From Haplodiscus bocki (Eukaryota): a stretch of 64,000 nt of DNA. The DNA is taken from NCBI GenBank assembly GCA_965655095.1, contig OZ296648.1, positions 148,676,001 to 148,740,000 on the forward strand, read 5' to 3'. The position numbers and the translations under genes were made by a program. The notes beneath the pieces were generated by a model. The model was not told the DNA's origin. It searched no databases and worked only from the letters and a program-made list of their open reading frames with translations. This document shows, one piece after another, positions 23,124-64,000 of the stretch (position 1 is the first letter of the stretch; each line of letters begins with the position of its first letter).

Positions 23124-23308
23124 GCAGCTAGGACGGGAAAGGCGGCCATAACTTACTTACTCATTTTCTGGACGGCGACCATACATCTTTCCCTTTACCT
23201 TGCTCCCTTTCCTTTTTACCTTGCTTTCTCTTCCTTCGCCCTTGGTTAAAATAAATCTGAATTCTGTTTCTTCTTTCCTCGGACGGAAATGTTTCAAGAC
23301 AATTCCAA

Positions 23309-23895: not shown

Positions 23896-23929
23896 AGTCA
23901 CTAATATCCCGGAAATTTTCAAAGATTTT

Positions 23930-24022
23930 CCAGCAGCAGCAGCAGCAACAACCAGCCGTAGCAACCAGCAGCAGCAACCAGCAAAAGCAACCAGCAGCAG
24001 CAACCAGCAGCAGCAACCACCA
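23930..24022 (+). repeat. 13-bp minisatellite (CCAGCAGCAGCAA) in the 5' LTR
   Basis: Visible tandem units; a longer array is present in the 3' LTR. Confidence 0.9.
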
Positions 24023-25652: not shown

Positions 25653-25669
25653 TGGTGCAACCAGTGAGG
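25653..25669 (+). promoter_or_regulatory. Primer binding site
   Basis: TGGTGCAACCAGTGAGG 3 nt after the LTR end. The tRNA identity is uncertain; it resembles tRNA-Ser-type PBSs after CpG decay. Confidence 0.75.
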
Positions 25670-25676
25670 CCATTAA

Positions 25677-25895
25677 ATGAGCTATAACTGTGAAGTGTCA
25701 GATAATCTTTTCTCCATTTTCCCAACCTGGTCTGTTTTAATTTTCAGCTTAATCTTTATATTGGGCGCTTTGATTTCATTCATTACAGGCGCTTCATTTG
25801 GCATAATAGTTAACTGGGTCTTAGATTTTAGCCAGAGCATTCTCCACTCCAATCGACAGAGAATCCGCACACAAGAAATATTTCGCCTAGTTTGA
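25677..25895 (+). CDS. Small hydrophobic (putative membrane) protein directly after the PBS
   Basis: ATG-initiated 72-aa ORF with the hydrophobic stretch WSVLIFSLIFILGALISFITGASFGIIVNWVL. Confidence 0.5.
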   Translation: MSYNCEVSDNLFSIFPTWSVLIFSLIFILGALISFITGASFGIIVNWVLDFSQSILHSNRQRIRTQEIFRLV

Positions 25896-25922
25896 ACGAG
25901 CAATTTGACGACTTATTGGTTG

Positions 25923-26256
25923 ATGCCTCTGGAACTTGGGAACGACCCTAATCAGCACTGGTACTTCTCTGAATACAACGAATAAAAACATTTTTTTCCT
26001 ATTCTGCCCGTGGACGTTAGAAACCCCAACTGAACAATTGAAAGTGATAGTTACGAGGATTGATTTCACTCTCAAAAGACAGTTCCGACTCCGATTACAA
26101 GTTTATCCTGAAGGAGAACCCCTATTCAGTAAATTTATTACATTGACGAGATTCCACGAACATTTGGCCTCAGCAATCGCCGCTATTCTACATTATCACG
26201 AATTTCCAGAACTCGGGTTTCCCGAAGTGGATTTGCAGTTCTCAATTCACTCCTAA
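25923..26256 (+). pseudogene. Pre-gag accessory ORF, paralogue 1
   Basis: MPLELG..(stop/frameshift)..FCPWTLETP..LKVIVTRIDFT..FRLRLQVYPEGEP..HEHL..HEFPEL. Confidence 0.6.
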
Positions 26257-26329
26257 CTGACCCAGTGGTGAATCAATATTCCTAGATAACCCTAATTGAA
26301 TCTTCAATATAAATTCACGTTAACACTTG

Positions 26330-26656
26330 ATGCCTAAAAAATTTGAAAGTTCGATGACGCACTTGGACGAGCTACCCGAGGAAGAGTGCAAGCATATTCC
26401 ACTAAATTGCATCTGGCCCATCACCTCCGAACACACGAACCTAACGGTCATCATAACCTGTTTAAAATGGACCTTCAATTTTGAATTTTGCGTACGAGTA
26501 ACAGCCTATCAACTGGGAGCACCGAACATTTATAAATAAACAGATCTAGAAGATCATCATCCTTTGCTTCGACCCTTAACTGACGCACTCCATTTATACG
26601 AAGCTTTCCCCGAACTCATTTGAATTCCCATTGACTCGAAATCTTGGAAAAGCTAA
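26330..26656 (+). pseudogene. Pre-gag accessory ORF, paralogue 2
   Basis: MPKKFE..EEECKHIPLNCIWPIT..VIITCLKWTFN..VRVTAYQLGAPNI..HHPLL..EAFPEL, with in-frame stops. Confidence 0.65.
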
Positions 26657-26692
26657 TGGAATATCTGTATTTCAAATTCTTTCAGAAATTAA

Positions 26693-27034
26693 ATGCCACA
26701 AAACTTTGAGAACTTTCCACCAAATTGGGATGCTATGGAAGAAGAATGCCAATATGTTCCGCTGACTTGTCCGTGGACCATTACTTGTAAAGACGGAACC
26801 GTGGAATTCATTATTACGAGTTTGCAATGGACTTTCAACTAAGATTTTTGGATAAGAGTTATTGCCCATTCAGAAGGAAACCCGAATATTTCGGAGCAAA
26901 TTAACATTGATAAACATCACCCTTCACTCGAATCTTTATCTGAGGCGCTAAACGATTACGTGAAAGTTCCCGAACCCAACTTAAACTCTCTCCAACTTCA
27001 CATTCTTGGAGAACTATTAGACTTCTTGTTTTGA
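26693..27034 (+). pseudogene. Pre-gag accessory ORF, paralogue 3
   Basis: MPQNFE..EEECQYVPLTCPWTIT..FIITSLQWTFN*..IRVIAHSEGNPNI..HHPSL..KVPEP, with one in-frame stop. Confidence 0.65.
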
Positions 27035-27052
27035 GAAGATACATTCTCCAAA

Positions 27053-28477
27053 ATAGCCAATGCTCACCTAGCTTATCCAAACTTGGCACTGGACAATTTT
27101 TCTGGCACGGGTCCAGACGAAGACGCAGAAGCGTTCATCCGTTTAATAGAGTGCAAGATTAATTTTGCTCTTGGAGCCGAACCTGAAGCCGCTGCAGACG
27201 AACATGCTATCCATTTATTCAGAAAGAAAGCTCTACTTTCTTCATTGCTAAGAGGACCAGCAGCTGAGTGGTATGGGAGCACTATTACGGATGCTATGAC
27301 TTAGAATGATGTTCGAACATTGTTCATAACAAAATTTTTAGATGGAAGAAACAAATTTGGACACAGAATGGAAGTTGAACATTGTATACGAGCTGATGGA
27401 AAAGAGATTTGAAACTTCCTTCACCGAATAAAGAAGACAGTGGACAAGGGCTGGCCTGACGATATGGTTGGAATCGCTCTCGGCGACCAGAATGCTGAAC
27501 GCACCGCACAAGTGCAGCAAAGAAGACAAAGATATTTTGGTTACACACTAAAGGGACTCAGACCACGATATCTACAACGAAAGGCTCAAGAATTTTTAAT
27601 GGAACATCCAAATGCTACTTGGAATGATTTTTCAACCCACTTAACTAATAAAGTCGTATCTTACCAAGTCTCTACTAGCTTTCAAAATGACGAAGAACAG
27701 AACACGGCTCAAATGGCCTCATTGGGACAAGAACTGAAAAACCTACGAACTGAGTTGAAGGAACAGAGAATAAACGCTTTAGGAGGAAACCAGAGAACTG
27801 TTGACCCTAACCAAAAGGGAAGACAGAATTCTACAAGATGTTGTGGGAATTGTCGGACCAATGGACACACTCCTAATAACTGCAGAAAGAAGATACGAGA
27901 TGAAGAAATCCAGAAGTTGCAGAATGAAACCACAGCAGAGAAAAAGGTTACGTTCAGCCAAGATTACAACAAGAAGCGAGGACCCTCCCACGGATCTGGG
28001 AACTGGACTAGACGGAACGATGACAATGGTTCTATGATGTCAACTCCACGATCATTTACTAGAGGAAATTTCCGGCCAAGTAATCGGAATTCTAACAACT
28101 TCAGACAAAGTAGACCTTTCGAACGACGAGACTACCCGACTAACAACAATATTCAGTATAATGACCACAGAGCAAACTCACCATACCGGTCAAACCAGGA
28201 CCAATCCAGGAATTGGGGAAGTAACAATAACTATTCACGATCGCCTTCAACCTCACGACAAGATTCCTCTTTCACGGATTTCCGCAATCAACCCCGATCA
28301 AATTCTTCCAACCCTTCAGTGTTTAACCGGTTTTGAAATGGAGACCTGAGCAACAATATACCCTACGACAAGAAATTTCCAACTTCTAACAACGGTAACC
28401 AACCAAACGTAGTTCGATTCACTACAACAGACGATGAAATTAGTTCGTTATCGGAACTGTGCCCTTTAAACTACTGA
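27053..28477 (+). pseudogene. gag: gag (capsid, zinc knuckle, Asn/Arg-rich tail)
   Basis: One frame: (ATA in place of ATG)ANAHLAYPNLALDNFSG..LRGPAAEWY..GLRP..CGNCRTNGHTPNNC..LCPLNY*; several premature stops. Confidence 0.9.
28465..28471 (+). promoter_or_regulatory. -1 ribosomal frameshift slippery site T TTA AAC
   Basis: X XXY YYZ heptamer in the gag frame just before the gag stop; pol opens in the -1 frame. Confidence 0.8.
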
Positions 28478-31400
28478 GGTCTACAAGCTCAGCTACTGAC
28501 CAGTCCAAGAATTCAAGACTCAGCTTCAACTATTTCTACTTCGCCACCGGAGACACTCAAAAAGATAGTGGCTTAGGAATTGAATTCATGTTACATACTG
28601 GAGCTTCCAGCTCAATCATCAACTACCGAACTTATTGGGAAATCTGCCAAACCCAACATCCAATCACGCTGAAAAGAAGCACTACGCAAACAAGGACTTA
28701 TTTTGGTCAAGTTGTACCTATGATTGGCTTTGCAACACTAACATTCAGTTGCGACCCGGATGGACAATTTTCACTTCCTTTGACCGTCTGGATAACCGAA
28801 ATGAAAACTCAGAACCTTCTCGGCATGGACTTTTGTCAACAGCAAGTATCCGGTATTCACTTCGATTTACCCGGAAGTTAATTTAAAGAGCCACCAAATA
28901 CTGTGTGTTATGGAAGCCTGCATCAGAACAAATCGTATCCTTTCATTTCGCAAATCCTAACAATACGAACTCCGCATGCAATGCACATTGAAGCCAAGAG
29001 CGCAAGATGCTGGAAGTATTCTCCCGAAGATCCCAATGCTCATTTCCCTCCTTAATCAACTTTTCACCAAAATCGCAAAGCTGTTGCTACGGGACTATCA
29101 TTTGTCAATGCGCTATGCACCAAATCAGAATCAAACCTACCTATACTAATGGAAAATAACAAGAACCACCGAATTACCTTGCCTAAAGGCCGAAGTGGCT
29201 TTTCATCATTAGACGTCTCCGACAAAGAAAAACCAAAAAATCAAATACGAGATCCTTACGAGCTGACCAATGCAATTCTTTCAAAAAATGAACAGTACAA
29301 CGATTGTTTCCTACTACATTCTACAATTCTTTCCCAGTTACCCGACGAAATCTTGCAAATAGTCTATGGTAACGAAATTTTGATTTTGAAGACATAACGT
29401 TTTTCTTTCTGAAGAAAGTAAAGTTCCTGGGACACGTTATTTCACCAGATGGGATTCAACTGATAGCAAAACGCGTAGACGCCTTACGGAACCTCAAGTC
29501 GCCCCAGAGTAAGCGAGATGTATGTGTGAAAGTCTTGGGATGTATTGGTTTCTGCAGCTGCTATATTAAGAACTTACCTGTTGATAGTCAGCCGTTTTAT
29601 GACCGCCTAAAAGATTCTACACCAGTCCACTGGACTGAAAAACACAAAACTTTGTTTAACTCTATTAAGGAACCAATTCACAAAGATACAATTCTAGCAG
29701 TTTCTTCTACCGATTACCCGTTTCTTATTCACGTGGACTCTTCAAATGTTGGTACAGGTTGTATTCTTATCCAACAATTCCCTGAGGGAAAGAGAATTAT
29801 CTCGTTCAACTCGCGTGTATTTGACAAAGCAGAACAGAAAATGTCCACTCATCGAGAACTATGTGTAATCGTAACATCTCTCCAGACGTACAAACACTAC
29901 AATATTGGATCACCATTTCCCATTTATCTCTATTGTGATCATAAACCAATTCTTTTTTATGGGGACACAAAGGACAACTATGGCATCGCTTCTTCCGATA
30001 TCAGGTGATCATTACAAAATTCCAAAGTTTGAAGATCATTTGGACTCCGAGATCCAACTTATCATTTCCAGATTTTCTCAGCCGAAACATCACGATCGAA
30101 GAATATCAGATGTACCACTTGCAACATAAACGTTTTCCGAATGATATTGGGCTTTCGATGAGAAGGGAACTCCAGTCTCATATCAAATTCAGCATGAGGA
30201 CAACCCTAACGATACTTTCAACGACTTTTACCCAATCAGGTACAAGCGAGGCAACGAAGAAAAAGTATTACGATTACAAAGTGACGGCGAAGATTTTATC
30301 GTCAGTAGCCTACTTGACGAATTCCCAATGAATTCAATTCAACAAGCTTCTGACTGCTTCCGAATGGGACGATTTATCAACCAGTTTAGAAGAATGTGTG
30401 GCCCAGAGGCTCAATCAAAGCTATCCGTTAACACATCCGATACTGACTATAGTTCAATTGACTCCTTTAGTTCGTCTGCAGATGACACAGCAGATCCAAC
30501 CAGTTACTGGGATGCCTCATGCCACATCCGTACGGACTCCGAAGATGGAAGATGACAAAATCGTTTGTGATATTAGTATTCAAGCTGATAAACCCCGACT
30601 CTTTCAAGCCAAACAAGCTCACGAATTCGTGCTCGGGAAAACCGATGCTTCTCTAGCCAAGAAACTCCTAACAATCTCTGAGGCTCCACATCTAGACACC
30701 AAAGCATTGATTCGGAAACTTGACGAAGTTGCGAAGACAGTAGATCTCGATGTATCAACCATTCTCACAGAACAAATGAAGGACCCAATTCTTGGTACTG
30801 TACGTTCTTGGATTCGTAAGAACACTCCTTCCGATACTAAAGGTCCGGAGATACAACAGTCAAAAGGTCTGCTACGATAATGCCAAGAATTCAACAGACT
30901 TCTTATCAAAGAAGAAGGACAGCTCCTTTGCTATATTGAACAGTCAGACAAACTAGAAGAGGAGAATCTCCGTATTTGTCTCCCTTTATCCCTATTCCTT
31001 GCATGCTTTCGACTGGGACGCTACAACGAAAAAGGTGGGCACATGGGAGCAACTAAAACTTATGCCAATGCCAAGAGATTTTACTATTGGCCTGGAATGT
31101 TTGATTGGATATGTGCTTTGACAGCAGATTGATTTACCTGCCAGAACAACAAACCTAAACCGAAGCATGGAAACGAAATTCCACTCGAAGAATGGCAAAA
31201 CGAAACAGTTCCTTTCCGCACCATACACATCGATCACAAGGGACCCATTCACCCGACTAGTGCTAGTAATGTGCATTGTCTTTAAATCGTTGATGCATTC
31301 TCTCGATTTTTGATGGTCTATCCAGTCCGTAATATAACAGCCCTAGCAACTATTTTAGTTGTTGAAAAGAGGACTCTTTCTTTTGGAATCCCACAATCAA

Positions 31401-32640
31401 TCATCCATGATCGAGGTACTGCTTTCATCAATACAGTTCATCAATTGGACCAAAGACTTGGAATTACAATAAGACCTCGTACAGCTTATTCACCCTGGAA
31501 AAACGGTAAAATTGAAACCCAGAACCAACATATTCCTCGATACTGGCGAAGCTTTCCTAATGATGCCGGAAATAACTGGTCTTCACTAGCACCGAAATTT
31601 GCATTCGCCCACAACACAAGTGTCAACTAGACAACTGGAAAAACCCCATATGAAGTTGTATTTTGGACCACACCTCAAATATCTATGTCCTTCAAACTGG
31701 GACTTTATCGGAATAAACACAAACTTTGCTGTTTAAAATTCTGTGAAAACCTTCCTTCTCATTCTCATCGTGAGAACAGTTTGAAGAACGAGTTGTTGGA
31801 CAACCTATTTCAACCGCAGTTGTCACAAACTCTCTTAGGGTGAGAACGAACCTTCAAGCAAATCTATTCATCAACCTTCGAACGAAGCCGAGAACAGACA
31901 GCACGATCACACGCCTATCGCAATCGCTTCAAGTTGGGACACCACCTTGAGATAGTACAGAAAGTACTCTACGAAAATCACAAGCAAGATCTCACACGGA
32001 GCCAAAAACTTCAACAACGAAGACTTGGACCCTTTACCGTTACCAAGCGTATCATGGATACCACCTATCAAATTCAAGACGATAAAGACCCCACATTTAT
32101 CAAAACTGTCCATAGAAACTACCTTGTTGAATACTATCCTAAAGAAGGATCTCTACCCGCAATGATAGAAGAATATGTACCTTCTGATCATCAGAATGAC
32201 AATTGCCACGGGCGTTTCATGGAGCAACGCAACCGGGATTTGAATAACCCAAACACAACAGAAGAGCTTGATTCCTTCCCAATCCCAATAGAACCGTTAC
32301 GATCTATTTCGTCCACAAACAAGCCGAAACGTTCTAGTATGCATAGTAACGATTCTGGACTTACTTCTCCACTTGCTTCCTCTTGCACCCCTGTGCTATC
32401 ACCTGCAATTCCTACGGAAACATCAATTCCCATCAATCTTCTTCTCAACAATCACAAACTGATCAATTGTTGCCCGGGAACATCTCAGTCCAATTCAACA
32501 ATTTATTCGCATTAGTGCAATCCGCATGGCCAGAAATGGCGTCAAATCGCGCTCTAAAGAGCCCAAATACAAATTCTCTCAGACAAAATACCCGGATTCT
32601 CAGTCAGTGTTGAGGACAATCACTCAACAGGGCTATAAAC
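28465..32640 (+). pseudogene. pol: pol: protease, spacer, RT (core deleted), RNase H, integrase
   Basis: FMLHTGASS (mutated D-T-G), KVKFLGHVISPDG, HVDSSNVGTGCIL..RELC..YCDHKPI, GHMG..WPGM..CQ, IDHKGP, HDRGT, NGKIE, LGPF. Many stops and frameshifts. Confidence 0.92.
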
Positions 32641-32978
32641 TTTGATCCCCTTTTTACTATCGCCACATTTTTGTAACTTTTATATTACCTGCACAACTAT
32701 TTTCTACTCGAGAATTTTGCTTTTATTTGATTTCTGATTACTTTGAGCACGATGGCTGCGATTCTCCAATGCGGACGATTCATTTTCCTCTCTACTCGCT
32801 AATTCAACTCCTGGTTTATATCTCCTACAATTTTACAAATAATTACGAAAAAGCCAAAAATACTTTTATTTGTTGTGCAATTCCAAAGAAGAAAACCGCA
32901 CAGTACGCTACTGCACAAGACATATAAAAATGCCGCCGAGGGCTACAAGGCCCCCGACGACAGGCGGAGTCGAGCGAC

Positions 32979-33479
32979 TTACTCTATTTCGGGAAAGCCG
33001 CCCGACTCCGCCAACATACGTAATTTTTCTGTCCTCTCTCCAACGGCCCAAGTTTCATAATGGCTACGGAGGCGATATTTATTAAAGCCCGTCAGCTTGG
33101 CATATCCAACAATATACGCCAGCATCCGCTCGAACAGCGGCTCAGCTGCAAGCTGGAGGAACTTCGCCTGCCACTGAGGCCCGTGACGCTCTTGTAGATA
33201 CGCTGAAAAATTCTGGGAGATTATGGGAGCCTCCACGACATATCCCAACTCATTAACTCTATTTCTCGTCTCCTGGCCCCAATTTTTTAATTCTATTACG
33301 TCAGTGCGAGTGTAATAATTCCTGAAGTTATTCCCATCGTCGGGAAGTTCCCATCCATGCGACAGTTCCAGCTCCGGGATCGGAGGAGGAGGAACGGGCG
33401 AAGGAGCCTCTGGCTGAGGAGGAGGCGATTCAGGTGACTCTAAGTTCATATTTACCTGGATATTCAGAGGCGCTGCCAC
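32979..33479 (-). CDS. Antisense accessory ORF with proline-rich N-terminus, unknown function
   Basis: Uninterrupted 166-codon frame (first ATG at 33449) in a GC-richer block between pol and env; the composition looks protein-like. Confidence 0.55.
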   Translation of the reverse strand: MAAPLNIQVNMNLESPESPPPQPEAPSPVPPPPIPELELSHGWELPDDGNNFRNYYTRTDVIELKNWGQETRNRVNELGYVVEAPIISQNFSAYLQERHGPQWQAKFLQLAAEPLFERMLAYIVGYAKLTGFNKYRLRSHYETWAVGERTEKLRMLAESGGFPEIE

Positions 33480-34054
33480 CTCTTGTTCTTTATTCGATTT
33501 TTCCTCGAAATAGGAATCTGAATTGCTTTCCTTCCTGCAAACAATTCATATTACTCATTGGAAGTTACGACCCGCCTGCTCCTAATGTGACGCGTCTATC
33601 CTATTCAGAACAAAGCTGCTTCACTTTGCCGACAGCCCGATGATAAGAAATCAGCGTGCTCCCGACAAGAGATAGCACGACACTAGTCCAGAACCAAAAA
33701 CAGTGCTCAAGGATTATCCCACATTTGTTGTTCTGAATTTTGTCCTACAATTACCAACGCCTATTTTACCCCTCTAACCCCCGGAAGGCCCTGCAGTGAC
33801 GAGCACAGCAGAACGAAGAAAAGGAAGAGGATGCCACCAAAACTATTATACACATTTTATTCATTTTATTTGATTTGAATTTTTTTTTGATTAATCTTAC
33901 GAAAAACTTAATTCCTTAAATTCCTCAATTATATAGTACATAGTTACTATAAAGAGTGAATATATCGTAGCAATGAAATAACTGAAAAATACATTCTCAG
34001 ATTTGCTATGACCGATGTATGTCAAAACTGACGGAGAATTGAAGTCAATAAAAT

Positions 34055-34939
34055 GAAATGAGCTGGAATCCGACGCAACAACGATCCTCATTCACACCAT
34101 AACAGACGAACACCTGGAAGAGGAATACAAGTGTTTTTCTGACTCCCCTAACTATTACCATCTGCGCTGTTTATTGTCTGCAGACATCTACATAATCAGT
34201 GACGTTATTTGTGGCAACAAGGAGCATATTATTTAAATGACACTCGTACTCCTCCGGATTGACAATCAACTTCAGTGTATTGTGGGCTTAACATTCATCA
34301 CAGGAACCAAAGATTTCATGGTAACAACTCAATCTACTACCAGTGGTCAGATAACAAACTTCATTTGCTCACCCGAATCAACTCATTATCCTTTTATTGA
34401 AGCTATACTCAAGAACCCTCCCCCGAACCACATTAAAAGTGAGAACGGGAAATTTTAAACGACTGTTCGCAACAAGCATTTTTATTCCAGAAGACCTGGA
34501 GTAAGGAAACTCAGGACTCACTGTTTGAATGCATCAATTAGAAATATCAATCTCGCAGTCACACACAAACACACCACTCAACAGAGTTAATCTCAATTGT
34601 AAGTGGACTTCAAATAAGTTGAGAGAGTGTAAAATCACTAACTTTTTTTGGTTACCCGACGGGAGCCCTTTACAAGTGCGAATAGACCCGGTTGAGAATC
34701 TACCCACTGTAGTTGTTATCCCAATACCTGCCCGCATAGCAGAAGTCGCCAACGTCTTTGTGACCCTCACAATTGCTGGTCGGAACTTGGCCACTCCGAC
34801 TTTGGACACGACGGAAAATCAAGGATTGGTAGATTTCCTGGCGTATATGAAAGCTAACTTTAGGACATACACTGGGGTGTCACTCATCAACCTATTGCAC
34901 GAATTTTGCAATCTTTACGACCTGGAATTCAAAGGATAG
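34055..34939 (+). pseudogene. Unknown accessory ORF(s) upstream of env
   Basis: A frame reading NELESDATTIL..HII*MTLVLL..NGKF* is followed by the 136-aa ORF 34529-34939; this looks like one decayed ~300-codon gene. Confidence 0.45.
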
Positions 34940-35345
34940 ACGAGGAAGGTAAGTGAGTTCTTCAAAACCCCCACGAAGTCTTGACGAAATAACTAATCTG
35001 CTTCACCACTAAACAAAACCCGAATAGTTGGACATAAGTACCAATTGGGAACTGCAAACTATGAAAACCCAAATAGTTGGACGTTCGAGCGAACTGGGGA
35101 CTACAATCATCTTATCTATGGTGGAAGTAAGATAAATTTAATTTTTGGCACTACCGGTTTTAGCCCGGCACCCTTTACAAAAATCTCCACGTGGTTACTA
35201 GAGCAGTGTGGCGACTCTATAAATTTAGTGCTATCGCTTCGTGTTTGTGCCTACGAAGTAGCCGGTAAAATATAATACGGCTGTTCCTTCTCTTTTGGTA
35301 GTTGTGATGAGAAATTCCACTCTACCCTTCCCATTTGCGAAAGCA

Positions 35346-37513
35346 ATGGATGTTAGAAACCAGGTCTTGTTTCTAATTACTTTAGCCAGTTTCACAAACG
35401 GCAAGCTTGAAACAGCTGATCTTCAAAAAATAGCCTCCCAACTCAAAGTGACACATTATGACTGTGGAGAAATGACAGAGAATAAACTCTACACTTTAAA
35501 CCAAGTTTCCAAATGCAACATTGCTCCTGAAAACCTAGAAGTCAGCAGAGCGAAAATCACGATGTACACAAATCTTCTTCGAAAAGAAATCAACGCAACA
35601 GTTTGTACAGTCAAATATCAGAGTGAACAATGGCACTGCGGTTTTGGAGACGACTCAAGCATGGACGCCCATCATACAGGAGGCATAACAATAGACTTAA
35701 CCGTCACAGCATCCCAATGCAGAACCTTGGCGAGAGGAGGTTCAATCACTTCAAAGGATGAGACACTCGAGTTCAAGGAAGGAGTAAAAACAACGGTAGT
35801 TAAACACAAGGATTTTGTTGACAATGGAGCGGACCTCAGCGACAAATACAGAATCGAAGGCGACTCATATGGATGGATAAACCGCAAATAATCTGAAGGT
35901 CATATACAGGACGTCGTGCTTAAAGTACGTACTAAAGAGGGCAAAGTTATGAGCAAAGACGGATTACAATTACCATGCCCTTTGGAAGAACTTGGATGCG
36001 ACACAACTTCATTTGACCCTTACGCATACACATGGGACAATCCTGACAATTCCGTTTTAGCTATTCATCGGAAAGAAGATGTCAACATGATCAAACAAGG
36101 AAAAAGCAAATACTATATTGTCAGTGGACGAAACAACACCAGTCAGTATCTATTCGAGGTAAAAACGAAACCCGAAGTTTTCTGTAACAAACCAGTGCAG
36201 TTATACCCGACTAACTACGATTCCTTATATGTGGTTAACGACTTTGGTGGCTTCGATCTCGCTTCTGGAAAAAGAATGGGATTCTCAGGAGGAACACAGC
36301 ACCTACAATACTACCAGCCTTCAGCTTCGTCTGACAGCAAACTATTCGTACACAAACCTGACTTACCCCATACAGATAATCTTAACCCAGAAACGCCTCA
36401 TTATCTCAACCTAGACTATGAACTCCATCAAGGAACCAAACTGAATTACCTATTTTTCGAAAAGTCAAAGATGCTGAAGGCTCCGAGATCCAACTTTTAC
36501 GGAACCTATGCGAACAAGAAAGAACCCAAATATTAACTAATCTGATGCTTTTAATGGAGAACCCACGTTTAGCTGGTTATATGCTAACTGGGAACCGCTC
36601 CATTTTCCTCAGTACCGATGGCAGCCTCGCTTGGTTATACCACTGCCCTTTGATGAGTTCTCCACCACACGTGATGAACCAATGTTATGATAAAATTCCT
36701 ACCTTCTACAAAAATGAAATATTCTTCGTCGACCCAATCACCCGACAAACACACCCAGATGCTCAAGTTCAAAATTCTTCTGACAGGATAAAGAACCTCT
36801 TTCAATTCGACATATAAGATGAGAACTCCTGGTTCACTATTACACCCTCTCTAGAACACGGGAAATGACCAGCAGTATTTGGACCAAAAGATGTAACTCC
36901 TGTACCCAGAAGAGCTTTTGGCAGAGCAGGAGACGCTGGAATCTACACACGAGCCCAGTTATCTGAATTTTGGGACAATATCTTTATCAGCGCTGCTTCA
37001 AGGAAAGCTTTGCAAAAAAATTGAAAAGAACTCATCCTCCCCGACACAGCAATTCATGGACCAGAACAACATTCTTACTCTGCCACACGAACCGATTTCT
37101 ATGTGGACAACATGATTTCCCCCAGCTACTTCAAGAATCAGTTTATGGACACATTTGGATCAGTTGCCTATGTCTTAGAATTTTGTGGGATATATTTCTC
37201 TTGCTTCCTGTTTATCAAGCTCATCGTTGATCTCATAGTCATGATCTTACGACACATGGAGATTAATCGTCTTAATGGCGCTTCACTTGGATTTGGCAAG
37301 ACACTCCTAAGCGCTTCTTACAATTTGCTTTTGACGTCTATTTTAACGTCAGTATTCAATCCCCAAGCTCCTCTTTTGCAGGCATTGGAGCCCGAACCAA
37401 GGCCTACAAGAGTAGAAGACGAGACTACAGATCCAGTAGACGAAAATAAGAAAAAGGAAGAGCACCTTTATCCGATTGTTCAATGCTCCACTACAGCTCT
37501 TTCCCTTGTTTAA
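35346..37513 (+). pseudogene. env: env: class III fusion glycoprotein (chuvirus G / herpesvirus gB-like)
   Basis: Signal peptide MDVRNQVLFLITLASFTNG; HYDCG..LYTL..C, VC..WHCG, QC; NPRLAGY..DGSLAWLYHCP..QCYDKIP..FFVDPITR; C-terminal TM VAYVLEFCGIYFSCFLFIKLIVDLIVMIL. About 720 codons with stops and frameshifts. Confidence 0.85.
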
Positions 37514-37555
37514 TTAGGATAATATGGGCGTTATCCTGACAAATTTTCTATTAAT

Positions 37556-38220
37556 TTGAAAATTTCAATTTTTTTATATATTGCTTTTTATAAGTCAGAC
37601 GACCAACCACTCCCTTTGCTGGAACACGACGAACTCGATGCGCTGCTCAGCGGAATTGACTGGGACCAACCCTTATCTCCACTTGATTTAAATTTGCCAA
37701 CGGACCCAGATACTATAACCCTTGTTTGTTCTTCCTCTCCTATCTTTCTAGTTGTTTTGCCGAACCAGCCACCAAATCCGTTGCTCGACAAATTCCTTCA
37801 ATCCCTAACAAATACACCAATTCAATTTTCAGATCACCCTACCACCTCTCGGCAAGAGTCTCGAGTCAAAATTCTATTGCCTTCATTGTGTAGTTCCGAA
37901 GCTCATTCTATTAAAACCCAATCGGAGGAATCACATTCTAATCCCTCTTCGCCATGACGACTCCGCTCTAATTCAACAGCTCTGGGAACAGCGACTCAGG
38001 ACGCTAGAGCATATCTTTCACGACATAATCGATTCCAATTAAATCAGAAAATTTTCAGACAGAAGCAAAGGGAAAGGCTTAAAAATCTGTCAGAAGACGT
38101 CGATACAACACCTGTCTACATTATCAGCTAACTAACGCTTTTTCTTCTTGGGAAATTGTGTTTTGGGATTATAAAAGACAAGAATATACCATCCAGAAGA
38201 CGGTTTTATCCTCACAGAGA
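37556..38220 (+). pseudogene. Low-complexity Pro/Ser/Leu-rich ORF remnant, possibly the N-terminus of the TRAF ORF
   Basis: ORF 37556-37957 continues in frame past a TGA; there is no recognisable motif. Confidence 0.35.
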
Positions 38221-38224
38221 TTAG

Positions 38225-38906
38225 TGGTACCCCTGTCAGCTATCGAAGTACAGCCCACCAAGCTCTGCTGCTTTTCAAGACTCCAATGGCCTAGGCAATA
38301 TCCAAATATCGAAGCCTCGGGTCACAATCACTTCAGAAAGAACTTCGAGCACTACGTCTCGTTCTCAGCTAACTGAATCGCCACAGGCTCCCCCATCAAG
38401 CCAAACAGCATCTGGACCTTCTTCGGATTTAGAAACCCGAGGCAAACAACTGGAAGAAGAAATTACCAAGGCGAGAGATAGTCGCGAAACAATTGCATCC
38501 ATTTATCGATCTCAATTTGCCTTCCTCTATAATAAAATTAGAGCCTTGGAGTCTGGAGGCACAGACATTACTTTGTGGAACCTAACTTCATTGAAATTAG
38601 TTTTCGACACCGCCAAATCTTCTGCTCGACTGGACAATGCTGCCAAGGACCCCAGTACTCATTACAATAGCCCTGCGTACCGCACACACTTTTACAGCTA
38701 TAACTTCTTTGTTCAGTTCTACCCATATGATCTGTACTCTGCCGCTGGAAACCACGCTTCAATTATGTTCGCCTTATTCCCCGGCGACTACGATGTTTTA
38801 TTGACATGGCCGTTCCCCAAAACGATTCATCTCTCAGTCCGCGATCAGCTTGACCTCCAGAATACGTGAAATTTTGCCTTCGCACCTTCGGAGAAGATAT
38901 CCTTTC
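38225..38906 (+). pseudogene. Coiled coil + TRAF-C/MATH domain, 3'-truncated
   Basis: Open frame 38225-38869: ..DLETRGKQLEEEITKARDSRE..KIRALESGGTDITLWNLT..SPAYRTHFYSYNFFVQFYP..GNHASIMFALFPGDYDVLLTWPFPKTIHLSVRDQ, then *NFAFAPSEKISF. This fits the TRAF consensus IWKI..SPxFYT..YGYK..LY..GTHLS.F..GxYD.LL.WPF..L.LLDQ..SF.RP. Confidence 0.9.
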
Positions 38907-41390
38907 TTCTATCCTCGGACGGAAATATTTCAAGACAATTCCAAGTTGTCTTAGCTACAATTTCTGCTGCTTATAGAACCAACCTACTCGCTCTCGCTTT
39001 TTCACCAGTTGATCCTTTTGGCTCTCGCCATAACTGAAAGAATACGCGGCCACTCGACTATAAATACCCAGTGCACGGCCATTTTTATTCATTCGCTTGC
39101 TACCACCAACTACCCTATTTCCCCGAGGCGAAACTCTCTTCCACTTTCTTCTCATCCGAATTCTGGGGTTCAATCCTAACCCCAAAGTTGTTCTAAGACA
39201 ATCCCAAAACATGTCTTAGCCAAAATTCTTCATCTTTTCAAATGAATTGGTCTTGGCCGCAAAATCTCCTTTACAGAATCAACCTACTCGCTCTCGGTTT
39301 CTCATCAAATGATCCTATTGGATCTCGCCCAACACGTGACAGTTTGAGTATAAACACCCAGTGCACAACCATAATATTCATTCGCTTCCTACCGTCAACT
39401 ACCCTAATTCCCCGAGGCGAAACTCTCTTCCACCTTCTTCCCATTAATACTCTGGAAATATTCAAAGACTTTCTATTGACAAACAGAAAATATTCAAAGA
39501 CTTTTTCGCCTGCAGAATTGTCTTAGCCGCAAATCATTAATATCCCGGAATTTTTCGAAGATTTTCCAGCAGCAGCAGCAACCAGCCGTCGCAACCAGCA
39601 GCAGCAACCAGAAAAAGCAACCACCAGCAGCAACCATCAGCAGCAACCAGCAAAAGCAACCAGCAGCAGCAACCAGCAGCAGCAACCAGCAGCAGCAACC
39701 AGCAAAACCAACCAGCAGCAGCAACCAGCAAAAGTAACCAGCAGCAGCAACCAGCATTCATCCTACCAGCAGCACCTACGCAATCAACGCCGACATCCGT
39801 TAGTTATCAATACGGTTCCTAGCAGAGGATATCCCGCTAGCAGTTGATCTAGGGCTAGCTGCCCGGTAGCAGAGAGTAATCACCGCACCGAGGCCCAATT
39901 TTGTTAACTTTCCACTTTTCTAAAAGTCCCTTTTTATGATTTTTTCCCTTTTTCGCTAAGGCTTAGTTTTAATTATTAATTGGTAAAAGTAAAACTCATA
40001 ATACTCACGACCAGTTGACAGTCTTTATGACTTATTTCCTGGTCGCAGATAAAAGAGAAAAAAAATTTATTGCTGGTGTCCCGTGGACCCGGACTTTTAA
40101 TCGGCAGGTGACAAAAACCCAGCTTAATAATGTGACCCGACGCGTGGAATATCCATACGGTGGTCATTTCTTGTACTAAGAGTAGTGTGAAATGCATGTA
40201 ATGTAAAATGCATATAATTTCAGTCCCCTTTCCCTACAGGCTGGCCTATCCAGCTTGGGACTAAAACAGGGGCTAGTCTTTTTTAACCCGTTACCCTGAA
40301 AATCTAGCGAGAGACGTGGTTTAGCTAAACGTAAAACAAACTGTCAAAAGACGGGCTAAAAAAGGCCGACTAGATAAGACGGGACTTGCTCATTACCCGC
40401 ACTAGTCAAAAAGGAAGATAGTGTTTGTTTACCCTATTTGCTTTATTCTCAGATTTCCAGTTTCGACAGCAGCTGTTGTTAATGTGGATGTGTGGATTAG
40501 CTTTGATTCTGATGTTTTATAATTTTGGTTTATAAATCTAAAAATTATTGGGACTAAATTTGGATAGTCCAAGAGCCTAATTGAGATAATTCCATTTATA
40601 ATTCAATTGGACTGAATTGAACGAGTCCAGTTTCTATACATGATTTATAGTTTCTTAATTGAATCAAATTTAATCAATTCAACTTTTATATTTGAATTTA
40701 TAACTTTAATTCAGACATAATTAAAGTAGTCTCAATTAGTTGATGTTGGTTATATTTTACGACTTTAATTCAGACTGAATTAAAGCAGCCTGAATTAGTT
40801 AATGTTATTAACATTTCCACTCCTAAATTGGAATTAACTTAACGTTGATTAATTTTCAGCAATTTGTGGCATCCCCTATTTAACCCCTCATTTAATCTTC
40901 TGACTTCTTGCTAAACAATTTGCTGTCCACGGTTGATTTAAATTGAAGTTGATTAATTGAAGGTTAAAATTTCATGTAAAATTTCTAAAGCTAATATTGA
41001 AATCGAAATAAAACAAGAGAAGAGTTGACTGAAGTGTATAACGTTAAAGACCATATGGCAATTTCCCCTGTGCTATTCCACGCTTACAACCTCAGACAGA
41101 GCTGAGTAATTCCCCCTTGCGTACGTGCAGTCAATTTTTTTTCCGCAAGTCAACATATTGGAAAATCTTCACTGGTAATTTAACTTTCCTTTGTATTATT
41201 CTCCGCTATAGCTCACAAGTCCTTGCTTGATTTCACGCAATCCCTTTGTTCGCACGATTAAGCAAGGCACACTATTGAGACTTACAAAGAATAGCCGTCG
41301 CTACAACGCAGCAGTGCTGAGTGAGTCAACCGCCAGCACAACTAAGTAAATAATAGATTTGCAATACCTCTACCCCCACAACGTGCGACA
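38903..41390 (+). repeat. 3' LTR, lacking its first ~470 bp
   Basis: Aligns to 23267-25649 and ends GTGCGACA followed by the TSD CTCA. Confidence 0.93.
39567..39757 (+). repeat. Expanded 13-bp CCAGCAGCAGCAA minisatellite in the 3' LTR
   Basis: About twice the length of the array in the 5' LTR. Confidence 0.9.
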
Positions 41391-47924: not shown

Positions 47925-48489
47925 CAGTATCTTCACATATATAACAGCGCAATAAGTCCGTGAAGGAACACGTTTTACGTTTTGCCTGCTTCCCTATATT
48001 TTTAATATCCTATTCCAGGTATTCAAAGTCCTCAATTCCCTACTCACTCTCTCCGTCATCGTTTAAATACCGGTTGGACATTTAGCCATGCGAAAACCAA
48101 GTGATGTGTCAGATTGCCCTTGCTTGCCCTCCCGAAAACGAGTTAAAGCAAACTGGTCAATTTTTGTGGAAAACAAACACGTTCATACTTTTAAAACACT
48201 GTCGTATTTGCAATGAATGTAAAATATAGTTTAATGAACTGCAAAAACGAGAATAACTACTCAACTCTATCAACCTCCTCAGTTTGTTCGTCGAATAAGG
48301 TAGTTGATCTGACACATCATATGGTTCTCGGATGCCTAAACGTCAAACTGGTATTTAGGCGATGACAGAAAGAGTGAGCAAGGAATTGAAAGCTAAGAAT
48401 ACCTGGAGTAGGATTTTAAAATACTGTGGAAGCAGGCAAAACGAGTTCTTTCAAGAACTTCCTGCGCTGGTATATACGTAAAGGTACTG
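47925..48489. mobile_element. Foldback MITE with ~190-bp imperfect inverted arms
   Basis: CAGTA...TACTG ends; arm motifs such as cgttttgcctgcttcc/ggaagcaggcaaaacg, tccaggtattc/gaatacctgga and tgatgtgtcagat/atctgacacatca. Confidence 0.8.
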
Positions 48490-56196: not shown

Positions 56197-57123
56197 GTTT
56201 TATAAACAGCTCGCGCTGAGTCAAGTACCCTCAAAAACCCTCGAGTGCTTTTGCTAAACAAAGCCCCTTTTCATAACAGTATTTTACAAACAACAAAATC
56301 CTCTTATCACTACTCTGTAATTTACATACAACACTCTTTCTATTCTTTCTTCTTACATGCAATAATCTTCCTTTATAACAAGTGTACAATTTAATCACAT
56401 ACGTAACATTTCAACAACTTTAATACAACATATTTCTTATCATTGACATAAAACAACGTTTAATATTTTCCGTTATAATTCATTGCCAGTATTTTATCAC
56501 AATATGCACTCTCCATAAATACTTCGCACAACAATTACATAGCAGTTCTGTACTCTCTGTTTTGTTTTCGTAACCCGCTGACACTTGCCCCTCATCCCGG
56601 CCCGCATTTAAATTAGTGCAAATTTCGAAGTCTTTCTCTTAATCCTGACCAAAAATATTATCCGCCTGAAAATTTCTAATCATTTGTCGACAACAGCACA
56701 ACGAAAGAAAGACGACCCAGCAAACAGACGAACTCAGCCGCAACAGTTTCCAGCTCTTGCTCGAAGAAAAGAAGAAGCAAAATCTCCTCTCTACAACTTG
56801 ACAACCAGTCCTCCAGAGTCTTCAACTTTCTCTATCCAGAAGTGCAATTGCCTCTCTTTGCCTCAACCAACAAAAGACATTATGTAACCGTATAATCTAT
56901 TTAAACTTTACTTTAAAAATATCTTCCTTTTCTAAATAAAATTCTTTCTTAAAAAGCCAAAAACATTTTTTATTCACTTGAGATATCCCGCTAGCAACCA
57001 CCAAACCAAAAACACCTAAATAGTAATATCAGAAATTACTGAAGTACCATTTCCAATATCAGTCGTCCTCCGCATCCAAAATTATTTTCTAGCGAACTGT
57101 TTTAAAAGCATACGACTGTAACA
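56197..57123 (+). repeat. 5' LTR of the second Gypsy element (start uncertain)
   Basis: Ends CTGTAACA immediately before the PBS. The partner LTR is outside the window, so the start is a guess. Confidence 0.45.
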
Positions 57124-57126
57124 AAA

Positions 57127-57144
57127 TGGTGACAGGAGTGGGAT
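57127..57144 (+). promoter_or_regulatory. Primer binding site, tRNA-Leu type
   Basis: TGGTGACAGGAGTGGGAT is one mismatch from TGGTGTCAGGAGTGGGAT, the complement of a eukaryotic tRNA-Leu 3' end. Confidence 0.85.
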
Positions 57145-58244: not shown

Positions 58245-59464
58245 ATGTCGACAACCGCCGCTACGGCAACGACCACTACCGCCACCGTTAAAAGCGCAGG
58301 AGGAACCACTTCTAGCACGCCTACCTCCTCGACTGCTACCAACAGTGCAACAAGTACCCCAGTTTCGTCGACCGCAACTAGCTCAACGCCTACTGCAAAC
58401 CCAGGCACTGGTGCTGCCGCACCTGGCACGCCGTTCGCGACAACTTTTGGCCCCGGAGGAGCCCTTTTGTAACTCTTTTGCCCTCATGCCTTATGCCAGA
58501 AAGTTTCACCGGTTCTGGTGACTTTGAGGACTACCTACAGCAATTTAACACTGCTGCCTTACTTTCTGGTTGGTTTTCACCGTCCCATGACAGCAGGCCA
58601 CATTATTTCGCCCTTCAGCTGCGAGGAAATGCCCTGCATTTCTACGCAACGCTTTCTGCAGCCCAACAAACTGATTTCAACTTGTTAGTTGATGCCTTCC
58701 GGTAGAACTATACAACGAATGTCGACATACTGAAAGCAAGATTGAAAGCTGCCCGGCAGCAACCCAATCAAGATAATTGTGCCTTTTTGTGTGACATTAG
58801 AACACTCGCGCGACGCGCCTATCGCGCTTTTCCTCACTTAGTAGAACAAATTGTCTTGACTAGTTTCATCGAAGGTCTGAGCGATGCAACGCTTCGATGG
58901 GAACTTAGAAAGTCCAAACCAGCTACAGCTGATGATGCTCTATCCCTGGCTATGGAATTGAATTCTTTCCTGGAAATTGAGAAAGGAGCTCCATCAACAA
59001 GTGAAATGGCCGAGGCCAGCGTAAACGCGATCTCCCGTGAAACTCCTGAGCCACCCACCAAAGAGTGGATGGACGAGCTTGTTCGAAGGCTAACGGAAAG
59101 ATTCAAGAACGCCATGCCTAAGCCGAACGCAGAAGTTTCCCGACAGCGAAATAGTACGCCAAATCGCAATCAGCCTTCTCGATCAAACAGCACCGATTCA
59201 CAAGGAACCCGAACGGTCCGTTTTCAAAATAATTCGAATGAAAGAAGAATTAACAGCGGCCGAGACAACAATCGGCAAGGACCCAGCCGCCTGAATTCGA
59301 CCCCTAACCGGCCCAATAGCACCCAAAATAGTTCCAAAGGACCTTGCAAACTTTGTAAACGCGAAAATCATGCCTCAAACGAATGCAAAGCGTGTTTCAA
59401 GTGTGGAAAGATTGGACACTTCCGCAATGAGTGCCGAAGTAACACTCCCAACAATTTAAACTGA
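58245..59464 (+). pseudogene. gag: gag with Thr/Ser/Ala-rich N-terminus and two CCHC knuckles
   Basis: PESFTGSGDFEDYL, LRGNALHFY, FIEGL, CKLCKRENHASNEC and CFKCGKIGHFRNEC; premature stops at ~58470 and ~58703. Confidence 0.92.
59455..59461 (+). promoter_or_regulatory. -1 frameshift slippery site T TTA AAC
   Basis: Directly precedes the gag TGA; pol lies in the -1 frame. Confidence 0.8.
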
Positions 59465-61827
59465 GATTGTCTACGCCAGAGGGTCAACGCGCAGACAAAA
59501 ACACTCATCCAGGCCCACAAATTGAAACATTGAATTCTGTTGTTGATCACCGAAGTGTGTCCATTCAAATAAAAATTTTTGATCGCATAATCGAAGCGAT
59601 ATGCGACAGTGGAGCAAGTGTGTCATGCCTTAGTAGTGAAATCTATGATTCCCTCAAATTGAAACATTCTTTGAAATTGGAACCTGCACTGAGACAACTG
59701 AAAGCTGCAAATCAATTGCCCATTGAGACACGAGGCGTCGTACGCCTCCCCATAAGTTTAGGCGGAAGAAAATTTGAACATAATTTTCATGTTTTGGCTA
59801 AGTCGGAAGCCGACTGCCTGATAGGCCTTGATTTTTTGGAAGATTACCAATGTGATCCACTTTTTTCGAAGAAGAAATTGCGAGTGAATGATGACACTTT
59901 TGTCCCATTGTACCACAAAGTTTATACAATACAAACTGATAAGGTCTTCCTAATTGTCCCCACTGACAACGTTTGGATCCCAGCAGGTCATTCGATGATC
60001 ATACCAGCCCACATCCCAGGATGGAAGCGCCCACCAATAGAGTTGGCTGCCGTATTCGAGCCGCATGAACGGTTCAAGGTAGACAAAGAGGTCAGTGCTG
60101 ACCATGTCTTGTTTAATTCCGCCGAGGAAACAATCCCGGTGATGGTAACAAATACTGGGGATGAAGCGGTCATGATACATAAAGACACTACATTGGGACA
60201 ATCCGAACTAGTCGCAGCAGATAAAATTCAAAACATTAGTACACTGAAAAACCGGAAAAGCCCGAAACCTACCGACAAAAAGGATGCCAAATACGATTTG
60301 AAACTTGTCAAAATTTCTATCGATACTGGTATTTCCCAGGAAGCAAAAGCAAAGTTCTCTAAACTAATCAATGAGTTTTCTGGTGTGTTCTCGAAAAATG
60401 AATGGGGTATTGGCCAATGCGATGTAACCGCCCACAAGATTCAAATAGAACCCGGGTCGCGACCAATTAAACTCCCCAACAGAAGGATGCCCTTACATTA
60501 CAAGGACAATCTGCAGGAAAAAATCGATGCTTTCCTAGAAAAGAAGCTAATCACGCCTTGTCATAGCCCATATAGTGCACCAGCCATGCTCGTCCCGAAG
60601 AAAAACGGCAAACTGCGTTTAGTAATAGACTACCGGCAGTTGAGTAAACAAACCATCAAGTCCGGTTGGCCCATTCCATCCATAGAAGAAATCTTTGACA
60701 CCTTAGAGGGAAGTGAATTCTTTACCACGATTGATATGTCGTGGGGTTTCTACCAGCTCCCAATGGCTGAAGAAAGTCAAGATTATACCGCTTTTAGCAC
60801 GCCTTTCGGATCTTTCAAATGGCTCCGAATGCCTATGGGACTAACTGGTAGCCCAAATACCTTTCAAAGCTTGATGGAACAGTTTCTAGTTGGCCTAACT
60901 TGCTAGACCTTGCTAGACAACAGACCCTTATTTAGATGATTGTATCATCTTCTCTTCTACGGCTGAAGAACACATTGAAAGAAAGATTAAGAGAAGTTCT
61001 TGAACGGTTTCGCTCTGCGAATCTAAAAATAAACCCAACAAAAAGTGAATTTTTCCGAACTCGCGTCCCCTTTTTTGGCCATATCATCAGCAAGAGTGGT
61101 CTAGAGGCGGACCCCCACAAAATTGCTGCCGTAAAAAAGTTTCCCATCCCCACAAATGCGACAGAAGTAAAATCTTTTCCTGGTTTATGTTCTTACTACC
61201 GTCGTTATGTGCAAAATTTTGCTGAAATAGCCCGACCACTCCACAAAGCAAGTGAAGTAACTGCAAATTTCAATTGGACACCCGAAACCCAAGATGCTTT
61301 TGAAACTCTGAAATCTCGACTAACAACTACGCCCATTTTGGCTTTTCCTATGATGAAAGAACCTTTCATCCTGTACACCGACGCTAGCCTAACGGCTATG
61401 GGCGCTGTCTTGTCGCAAGTACAAGACGGACAGGAGCGTGCCATCTGCTACGCCTCCAAAGTTTTCTCGAAAGCCCAAACTAGATATTCTGCGACTAAAA
61501 GAGAATTGTTAGCCGTCGTTAACTTCACACGACACTTACTTGCTTGCTCAGAAATTCACAATTATCACTGATCATCGTGCCCTACAATGGCTCCACAAAT
61601 TCAAGGACCCAGATGCACTAACCGTCCGCTGGCTTGAAAAACTTGCCGCTTTTGACTACGAAGTAGTGCATAGGCCCGGAAAATCGATTGGCCATGCCGA
61701 TGGTCTATCCCGAACACCACTCATAGCATTTAATGCAATTGCAACCGAAGACCCAGCCACAAATGCGCCTGAAGATGATCAAGAATGGCCCAACCGCACG
61801 ATTGAAAGTCCACCAGACGCCAAACAA

Positions 61828-62244
61828 ATCCAATATTCGGAGATTCAAGGCGATGTACTGCAATCAACTGACTCCATTGCTCACTGTATTTCAGCTGACT
61901 TCAAGCTAGGAGCAGGAATCGCTCGAAGCATTAACTGACGCTTTCCAACGCAGAACCCCGACAAGGAAGCCATTACTAGCGAAGTCATTTAGCCGCAATG
62001 GATAACCGAATCGCAACGTTTCGTCTACCATTTAATAACAAAAGTGCGTTATTTCCATAAACCAACGTACAAGGCATTGAGATTATCTCTAGAGGCAATG
62101 AAAAACCACGCTGAAAGCAAAAATGTTTTGCGCATTAGCATGCCCCAGACAGGTTGTGGCCTCGACAAACTTGATTGGAGTAAAGTTCGAACCTTGATTA
62201 AAGAAGTTTTCCGGCCTACCAACATAGAAATCATCGTGTTTCTA
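61828..62244 (+). pseudogene. TARG1/OARD1-type macrodomain embedded in Pol
   Basis: IQYSEIQGDVLQSTDSIAHCISADFKLGAGIA..RFVYHLITK..HKPTYKALRLSLEAMKNH..ISMPQTGCGLDKLDWSKV..IKEVF..IEIIVF in a single frame with two stops (61936, 61990). Confidence 0.93.
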
Positions 62245-64000
62245 AAGCCTTCAAAAGAACTATCGCACGCAAGTCAAGACTCAGTTGACTCCAGTGATAA
62301 TGCAGTCTCAACAGAGACGCCTAATAATTCCCAAACGTTGGCTTTCCTCGCATCAGCACAGAGAGCCGACCCAGCATTGAAGAATCTTTTTCAATGGGTC
62401 ACACGCGGTACACCACCAAGTACCCACGGGTTACAAGGACTTTCACGAGCAACATGGCAATTGGTCAACGAATTCCGAAGTCTGACGATCGTCAACGACG
62501 TTCTATGTAGATAGTTCGTCCACAAAAAACGTCCATCGTACTTTCAACAACTCTTACCTGCGTCATTAGTACCCCAAATCCTGAATTAAATCCACTCATC
62601 GACCACTGGAGGTGACCTAGGAATATTCAAGACTGTGGAAAAAGTCCGTGAACGTTTCTACTGCCATGGCTTCCAGGAGGATGTGAAGTTTTTCATCAAT
62701 TGTTGTGAACAATGCCAGAAAAGAGCCAACCCACCCAAGACCCATCGACATTCTTTGGTCGAATGGACCCCCAAGCTACCCGTTTCGTCATATTGGCATT
62801 GATTTTATGGGTCCCTTACCATTGTCGAACGGTAATCAACACATTCTTTTAATTAGCGATCATTTCTCGAAGTGGTACGAAGCAATCTCACTTCCCGACC
62901 AAACTGCTTCTACCACAGTTACGGCTCTTCTTGAAAATTGGATCTGTCGATTCGGATGTCCCCACAGTGTCCATAGCGACCAAGGTCGTAACTTCGAATC
63001 AAAACTATTCAAAAGTCTGAATCAGGCTTTGCAGGTCGACAAGACCCGAACAACAGCCTTCCGGCCCCAGTCAAACGCGGTTGTGGAACGAATGAACCGT
63101 ACGTTGCAATCAATGCTTGCCAAATGCATCAACGATGAACAAAGTAACTGGTCACAACAGTTACCGTATGTCATGATGGCATATCGTACCTCGGTTCATG
63201 AATCTACAGGGTACACTCCACATTTCCTTGTCTACGGACAGGAAGTCTGCCTTCCTATTGATTTCATGTACCCAAATCCGAGTGATCTACCCCCAGCCGA
63301 CATCCATGAATTTGTGTCTGCCCGACAAGTCAGATTTCAAAAGGCGTACGATTCGGCTAGTACAGCCCTGAATTTCAATCAGCGACGCAGGAACGCCATT
63401 TACAATCGAAAGGTCCACGGACCCACCTACCAAGTTGATCAAAAAGTCTTATTACACAACCCTGTTGTCCCAGTTGGAAAGTCACCAAAGTTCTTTAGCC
63501 CATGGAAAGGTCCATATGTCATTTTTCAATGCCTTAATGATGTGACCTGCAGCATTCAAGAAATTGCAACTCAAAAGGAACTTGTTGTTCATTATGACCG
63601 ACTGAAGTTATTCCATGAACTCCCATCGACCTCGAATGTACCAACGCGTGATAAAAGAAATCCGAAAAACATATCTCAACCAAAATCTCAGCAACAAGAA
63701 CCATCATTTCCCGAGTACGACCACGATCAATGCACCTGGTATTAACCGTACCATACCGTCCCCTTCAGCAACCACTTGTTCTCGCGCCATTGCTTGCACA
63801 ACCCCGCCTGCTACGCCTGCACCAGCAACTACTCCAGTTGGTTCCCCCAAATCTGTACTACCGAGTCCCTCTTCTTCCTATTCTGGAGCTACAGCACCCT
63901 ATAGCCATGGCTCTCCCGGCACACCGAAGACAACCACTTCTCTCCGTTCGGGCACACCTACACCTGAACCTCAAACATCTGCAGAATCACCGGCTCACTC

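Follow-up and report, generated by a model that had tools for sequence, protein, structure and literature searches.

A TARG1/OARD1-class macrodomain between the RNase H and integrase of a clade of Ty3/Gypsy retrotransposons

A macrodomain of the TARG1/OARD1 class (61828..62244, forward strand) sits between the RNase H and the integrase within the Pol region of a decayed Ty3/Gypsy element in the window (the whole stretch of 64,000 nucleotides of Haplodiscus bocki DNA analysed here). Sequence comparison indicates that it is a real and constrained accessory enzyme domain of one Gypsy clade, composed of known parts in a new arrangement and with a putative function. Gypsy Pol has few known accessory domains, and an enzymatic one now joins them.

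The macrodomain and its host element

The region 61828..62244 comprises 139 codons, two of which are stops (61936-61938 and 61990-61992). With these stops written as X, a phmmer search against PDB matched five sequences of human OARD1/C6orf130 over residues 6-138 (E 4.4e-30 to 6.1e-30), and the sixth and last match was DarG (5m31) with an E-value of only 0.065. A profile of 58 related sequences gave 4e-62 for TARG1, 4e-16 for DarG and 0.15-0.6 for alphavirus macrodomains; eight vertebrate-OARD1-like proteins had been removed before the profile, the trees and the counts were made. The macrodomain match is far beyond chance, and the assignment to the TARG1 class, put forward in an earlier note on this DNA, is borne out. 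In a Macro-profile search, suggested there as a check, Pfam Macro alone scores the domain weakly (E 0.0051, below cut-off). The NCBIfam DarG model NF048014 gave E 3.5e-10 and 39.7 bits at a cut-off of 250, which leaves the domain outside that family.

The lysine of the LITK motif (62041-62043) aligns with K84 of TARG1 and the aspartate of GCGLD (62164-62166) with D125, so that the catalytic equivalents proposed earlier are found in place. K84 is described as the nucleophile and D125 as the resolving residue (PMC6397177). The TARG1 pattern of loops 2 and 3 from the same source is present in strict form in 11 of 16 long relatives (13 of 16 when relaxed) and in 108 of 123 homologues outside the clade. 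The window copy misses one loop position, which we attribute to the decay of a copy that no longer works. In comparison with human TARG1 (PDB 4j5q, 4j5r), the whole domain is matched and the positions of H32, C33, S35, T83, K84, P118, the GxG loop and D125 are kept. On the other hand, TARG1 is a standalone protein while the element domain is embedded in a polyprotein, the R119 and C122 positions vary among families, and the window copy is interrupted. The DarG antitoxin has the macrodomain branch and the catalytic lysine in common with the element domain, but the element lacks the C-terminal DarG domain. No DarT-like gene was found by Pfam among the window ORFs scanned.

The surrounding features, all on the forward strand, follow the order gag and then protease, reverse transcriptase (RT), RNase H and integrase, which identifies a Ty3/Gypsy LTR retrotransposon. 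A probable 5' LTR (56883..57123) ends in ACA three bases before the primer-binding site (57127..57144), an 18-mer starting with TGG right behind the LTR that presumably resembles the 3' end of tRNA-Leu. This site sets the 3' end of the LTR; its TGTAAC start at 56883 is a guess, and the 3' LTR of the element lies beyond the window end. The gag gene (58245..59464) is broken by a frame change near 58490 and a stop at 58703, and carries a C-terminal CCHC knuckle (Pfam zf-CCHC, E 7e-6). In the gag/pol overlap, a slippery heptamer (59455..59461) precedes pol in the -1 frame. The 79 nt 3' of the heptamer fold no better than shuffles (z 0.78) and do not support a stimulating RNA structure, hence the frameshift signal at 59455 is only putative. 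Ser/Thr/Pro-rich low-complexity stretches occur at the start of gag (58245-58470) and behind the integrase C-terminal domain (63750-64000).

Within Pol, the aspartic protease (59563..59841; Pfam gag-asp_proteas, E 2e-7) is followed by the RT core (60592..61088; Pfam RVT_1 and tblastn of intact relatives), RNase H (61275..61716; Pfam RT_RNaseH/RT_RNaseH_2) and a putative protease cleavage site between RNase H and integrase (61729..61740), which is deduced from a motif in relatives and lies 5' of the macrodomain. Behind the macrodomain come the integrase N-terminal region (62335..62730), composed of a small helix/strand domain and an H2C2 zinc-binding domain (Pfam Integrase_H2C2, E 2e-15), and the integrase core with its C-terminal domain (62780..63607; Pfam rve, E 2e-11, and Integrase_p58_C, E 7e-8). 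The earlier note had described a full macrodomain in frame between RNase H and the integrase region. It is indeed full-length and shares its frame with the RNase H end and the zinc-binding region of integrase, but this frame is not open. Pol contains four stops (61936 and 61990 in the macrodomain, 62512 and 62587 in the integrase N-terminal region) and four frame breaks (near 60900-60982 in RT, at 61535-61537 in RNase H, at about 62720-62820 and at 63411), and no enzyme can therefore be made from the window copy. Its identity to P0004, which represents a cluster of 83 sequences, is 94% over 427 residues. None of the close relatives bears a name. Among the matches listed, RT identity to named Pols does not exceed about 46%, and the tree described below was made without reference elements.

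Distribution and constraint

A search among longer proteins yielded 51 relatives with the domain (38-93% identity), one of which, P0020, is an uninterrupted Pol of 1598 residues. Its RT-RNase H region was used as a query, and the best 120 of 3588 matches were examined. In 19 of these Pols, RNase H is followed by a macrodomain (truncated in one by the end of the protein), and they are exactly those with an RT identity of at least 75% to P0020; the other 101 (RT identity at most 53%) have none. A tree was made from the 106 rows whose RT-RNase H is collinear. One of its clades (SH-aLRT 100) carries the domain in all 20 rows, as compared to none of the six rows of the sister clade, and 84 of the 106 Pols are without it. 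The distance from RNase H to the zinc domain is 92-96 residues in the sister clade versus about 250-336 in carriers. A carrier clade next to a macrodomain-free sister indicates a single gain at the base of the clade, provided that the root lies outside it. No sibling DNA was found in the prokaryotic genome contigs scanned.

Trees of macrodomain, RT and integrase from 12 intact Pols display the same three subgroups, with the exception of P0201. Its macrodomain sits with a different subgroup (AU p 0.019, the groups having been named after pairwise identities were known), and the same displacement is not significant for the part comprising the small domain and the zinc domain (AU p 0.118). P0201 is a mosaic: protease, RT and integrase core are nearest to P0020, macrodomain and integrase N-terminal region nearest to P0213.

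Mean identity among the intact Pols is 0.79 in RT, 0.80 in RNase H, 0.73 in the integrase core, 0.60 in the zinc domain and 0.55 in the macrodomain (12 sequences each); the protease also reaches 0.55 (11 rows), while the upstream linker and the tail are at 0.23 (12) and 0.26 (11 rows), respectively. The macrodomain measures 136-138 residues in all 12, compared to 31-96 for the linker. None of the 16 long relatives deviates at H32, S35, D37, G43, A45, K84 or D125. Of the 139 columns, the 35 that are conserved in 123 non-clade homologues, which may include unrecognised element fragments, have a mean element conservation of 0.86, versus 0.57 elsewhere (rho 0.68). The 51 unselected siblings include many decayed ones; 44 of the 46 hits that cover the K84 position keep this lysine, and 33 of the 37 that cover the D125 position keep the aspartate.

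This protein-level evidence indicates purifying selection on catalysis. Since siblings carry the domain and its catalytic sites are constrained, intact elements likely encode an active hydrolase. The earlier note had counted absence from siblings, or inactivity together with neutral evolution, against its own proposal; a survey of family copies instead located the domain in 51 sibling proteins and in every row of the clade, with catalytic sites that appear constrained. The domain might nevertheless be regarded as a captured fragment of a host gene that is carried along without function, considering that the window copy is broken and that most Gypsy Pols do without it. The domain length is fixed and the active site does not vary even between families as little as 37% identical, next to linkers that diverge. 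This largely refutes the idea, which we consider scarcely credible.

Position next to integrase and spread among Gypsy elements

In 11 of 16 relatives, a motif resembling the one before the protease N-terminus lies no more than 16 residues from where RNase H ends; between macrodomain and integrase N-terminal region, a cleavage-like motif is found in 2 of 16. The motif was defined post hoc, with the sequences already seen, and it is absent before the domain in 5 of 16. Sister-clade Pols have their integrase N-terminal region directly behind RNase H and that putative cleavage site. The simplest reading of a motif that is frequent before and rare after the domain is that the macrodomain extends integrase at its N-terminus; it probably rides in this form, travelling with the cDNA. 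This attachment is not obligatory, as displayed by P0063 and P0060: both consist of a zinc-knuckle-like region, a protease and then a macrodomain related to that of the clade, in a protein without RT or integrase. Their layout also implies that the domain has moved between element architectures.

A place beside integrase bears on two other possible roles. The domain could be a hydrolase of metabolites that clears O-acetyl-ADP-ribose or ADP-ribose-1''-phosphate and thereby affects sirtuin-based silencing or tRNA primer supply. A PDB deposit of TARG1 is named O-acetyl-ADP-ribose deacetylase, and ADP-ribosylation of KAP1 by SIRT6 is reported to silence LINE-1 (PMC4695847). However, a diffusible substrate gives no reason for a fusion beside integrase, and we regard this role as improbable. 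Alternatively, the domain could be a reader that binds ADP-ribosylated chromatin and directs integration to breaks, replication gaps or telomeres, in the manner of chromovirus chromodomains. It flanks integrase in most carriers, its binding pocket is conserved, and it stands twice at the C-terminal site where chromoviruses are described to hold their chromodomain (PMC12440569). Binding alone would not require the two catalytic residues to be kept without exception in 16 of 16 relatives, and we deem such targeting rather unlikely.

To survey the wider spread, 1.84 billion representatives were searched, with 3174 matches at E 0.001. Of the best 150, the 80 longer ones were scanned with Pfam, and eight of these carry retroelement domains. 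In them, the macrodomain follows the protease in P0063 and RNase H in P0155, P0139 and P0183. It stands before or behind the zinc domain in P0067 and P0104, and on the C-terminal side of the integrase core in P0079 and P0152. The strict TARG1 pattern is present in six of seven Gypsy domains from outside the clade (P0060, P0079, P0104, P0139, P0152 and P0155, with P0063 as the exception). P0152 and P0155 fall outside the carrier clade in the RT tree, P0155 on a long branch. Based on the positions and the RT placement, repeated capture by Gypsy lineages appears likely. The macrodomain tree, with 15 element rows and 41 of the 123 others, needs six changes, and the AU test does not reject one common origin (p 0.206). 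No single donor of the clade's domain stands out: its Atlas neighbours are both phage and eukaryotic Macro clusters at 0.94, and 96 phage records match, all below 60% and the best at 37%.

The varying position in P0063, P0155 and P0139, P0079 and P0152 would suit a cytoplasmic counter-defence, in which the domain strips antiviral mono-ADP-ribose from the RNA, the Gag or the Pol of the element, inside the particle or close to it, and its place in Pol merely serves packaging. RNA-virus macrodomains are known to oppose PARPs. TARG1 itself is reported to reverse uracil-N3 and guanine-N1 ADP-ribose on RNA (bioRxiv 10.64898/2026.03.31.715305), and all 16 relatives have R or K at the position of R86, which belongs to its RNA-binding surface. 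By contrast, only 9 of the 16 have a basic residue at the position of R126, and the low quantity made at Pol level would be little for a decoy of bulk defence. We consider a counter-defence of this kind unlikely, yet worth keeping in view.

P0155 contains a second, degenerate macrodomain in the bridge between RNase H and integrase, which is 26% identical over 131 residues to its first one (E 2e-8) and scores 24.5 bits as compared to 14.1 for the best of 300 shuffles. Searches for relatives of this second domain found none: one gave only the domain itself among 553 candidates and another a single locus. None of 81 macrodomain-free bridges scored above 4.2 bits. A link of the degenerate domain to the 'pseudo-RNase H' of errantiviruses is possible. 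P0155 (residues 630-787; L001, 127-3288) comes from a record of a bacterial MAG and is probably host DNA; in this Gypsy Pol, the intact TARG1-class domain comes first. Separately, TARG1-class domains in P0088, P0112, P0144, P0146, P0193, P0196 and P0103 are fused to DNA ligase 3, PNKP, NADAR or SLOG domains; these fusion partners are nick-processing and nucleotide-conflict proteins.

A possible role in the removal of ADP-ribose

Based on this dataset, we tentatively favour, at somewhat below even chances, an active ADP-ribose eraser that acts on the cDNA or the integration complex. An ancestor of one Ty3/Gypsy clade inserted a domain of the TARG1 ADP-ribosylhydrolase class into pol, behind the putative RNase H/integrase processing site and ahead of the integrase N-terminal domain, as position and clade distribution show. 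To judge from the invariant residues, intact members would keep a working enzyme with the two-step lysine/aspartate mechanism of TARG1. It would be made at Pol level via -1 frameshifting, packaged in the particle and kept on integrase after protease processing. There it may remove ADP-ribose from cDNA ends, from the gapped integration intermediate or from integrase itself, and host PARP marks would thereby be kept from stalling strand transfer or gap repair. The window copy would be a decayed fossil of that design.

TARG1 is reported to reverse thymidine-linked ADP-ribose on DNA in a K84-dependent manner (PMC8501950), to clear marks made by PARP1 where Okazaki fragments are unligated and at 3' overhangs (PMC11102865), and to take ADP-ribose off single-stranded DNA that PARP1 has modified at gaps and overhangs (PMC8501950, PMC11102865). 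By analogy, gapped integration intermediates may resemble these DNA substrates. The earlier note had inferred protection of element proteins or cDNA from host ADP-ribosylation, and this may apply. On the other hand, PARP2 or PARP activity is reported to aid LINE-1 integration and not to block insertion (PMC11140550), and if PARP helps insertion, the domain could help to tidy up the integration site instead of countering a defence.

A bolder hypothesis, drawn by analogy and in our view fairly unlikely, is that animals ADP-ribosylate the bases of retrotransposon cDNA or RNA as a defence, and that Gypsy elements have repeatedly answered with a TARG1-class eraser fixed to integrase, as DarT is opposed by DarG-like phage proteins. 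Degenerate copies such as the second domain of P0155 may then correspond to the 'pseudo-RNase H' of insect errantiviruses. If this latter idea were true, the capture would be old and widespread.

The natural TARG1 substrates in animals, nucleobase-linked ADP-ribose on DNA and RNA, are only newly described. A clade-wide TARG1-class domain beside integrase, together with unrelated carriers, may point to ADP-ribosylation acting on the retrotransposon cycle. The natural intact domains, with the macrodomain-free sister clade as a control, make such a role directly testable.

Macrodomains have been noted in some non-LTR elements. Among reverse-transcribing elements, epsilon-like endogenous retroviruses of fish are reported to have macrodomain ORFs (Basta et al. 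2009, as cited in PMC4977317). These are likewise carried by a reverse-transcribing element, but they are described as additional ORFs and in Retroviridae (PMC4977317). The macrodomains of RNA viruses (coronavirus Mac1, alphavirus nsP3) are also part of a viral polyprotein; they differ by their MacroD-type chemistry, and alphavirus chains reach only E 0.15-0.6 against our profile. TARG1-like genes are reported in viral genomes, with a patchy presence in invertebrates (PMC4245714). The 'mini' and 'pseudo-RNase H' bridge domains of Ty3/Gypsy (PMC13524379) occupy the same location in Pol, and a small domain before the zinc domain is present here, too. The word macro is absent from that paper, whereas the present elements have a catalytically complete TARG1 domain ahead of the small one. 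Among the papers listed in literature searches, none describes a macrodomain in Gypsy Pol, and passages of PMC12440569, PMC10221186, PMC4695847 and PMC10499221 contain nothing on such a fusion. Automated Pfam labels already place Macro on P0206 and P0209.

No second macrodomain was found elsewhere in the window, including another LTR element (23267-41390). This element has terminal repeats of about 2.4 kb that are 90-95% alike, remnants of a Gypsy-type pol, a gene for a Monjiviricetes-type fusion glycoprotein (35262-36817) and, just inside the 3' repeat, an ORF with a MATH/TRAF domain (38225-38869). Both of its terminal repeats contain tandem arrays of a 13-base unit (23911-24048 and 39541-39769), which differ in copy number. 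An inverted repeat at 47978-48443, with arms of 137 nt that are 81% complementary and 192 nt apart, is MITE-like.
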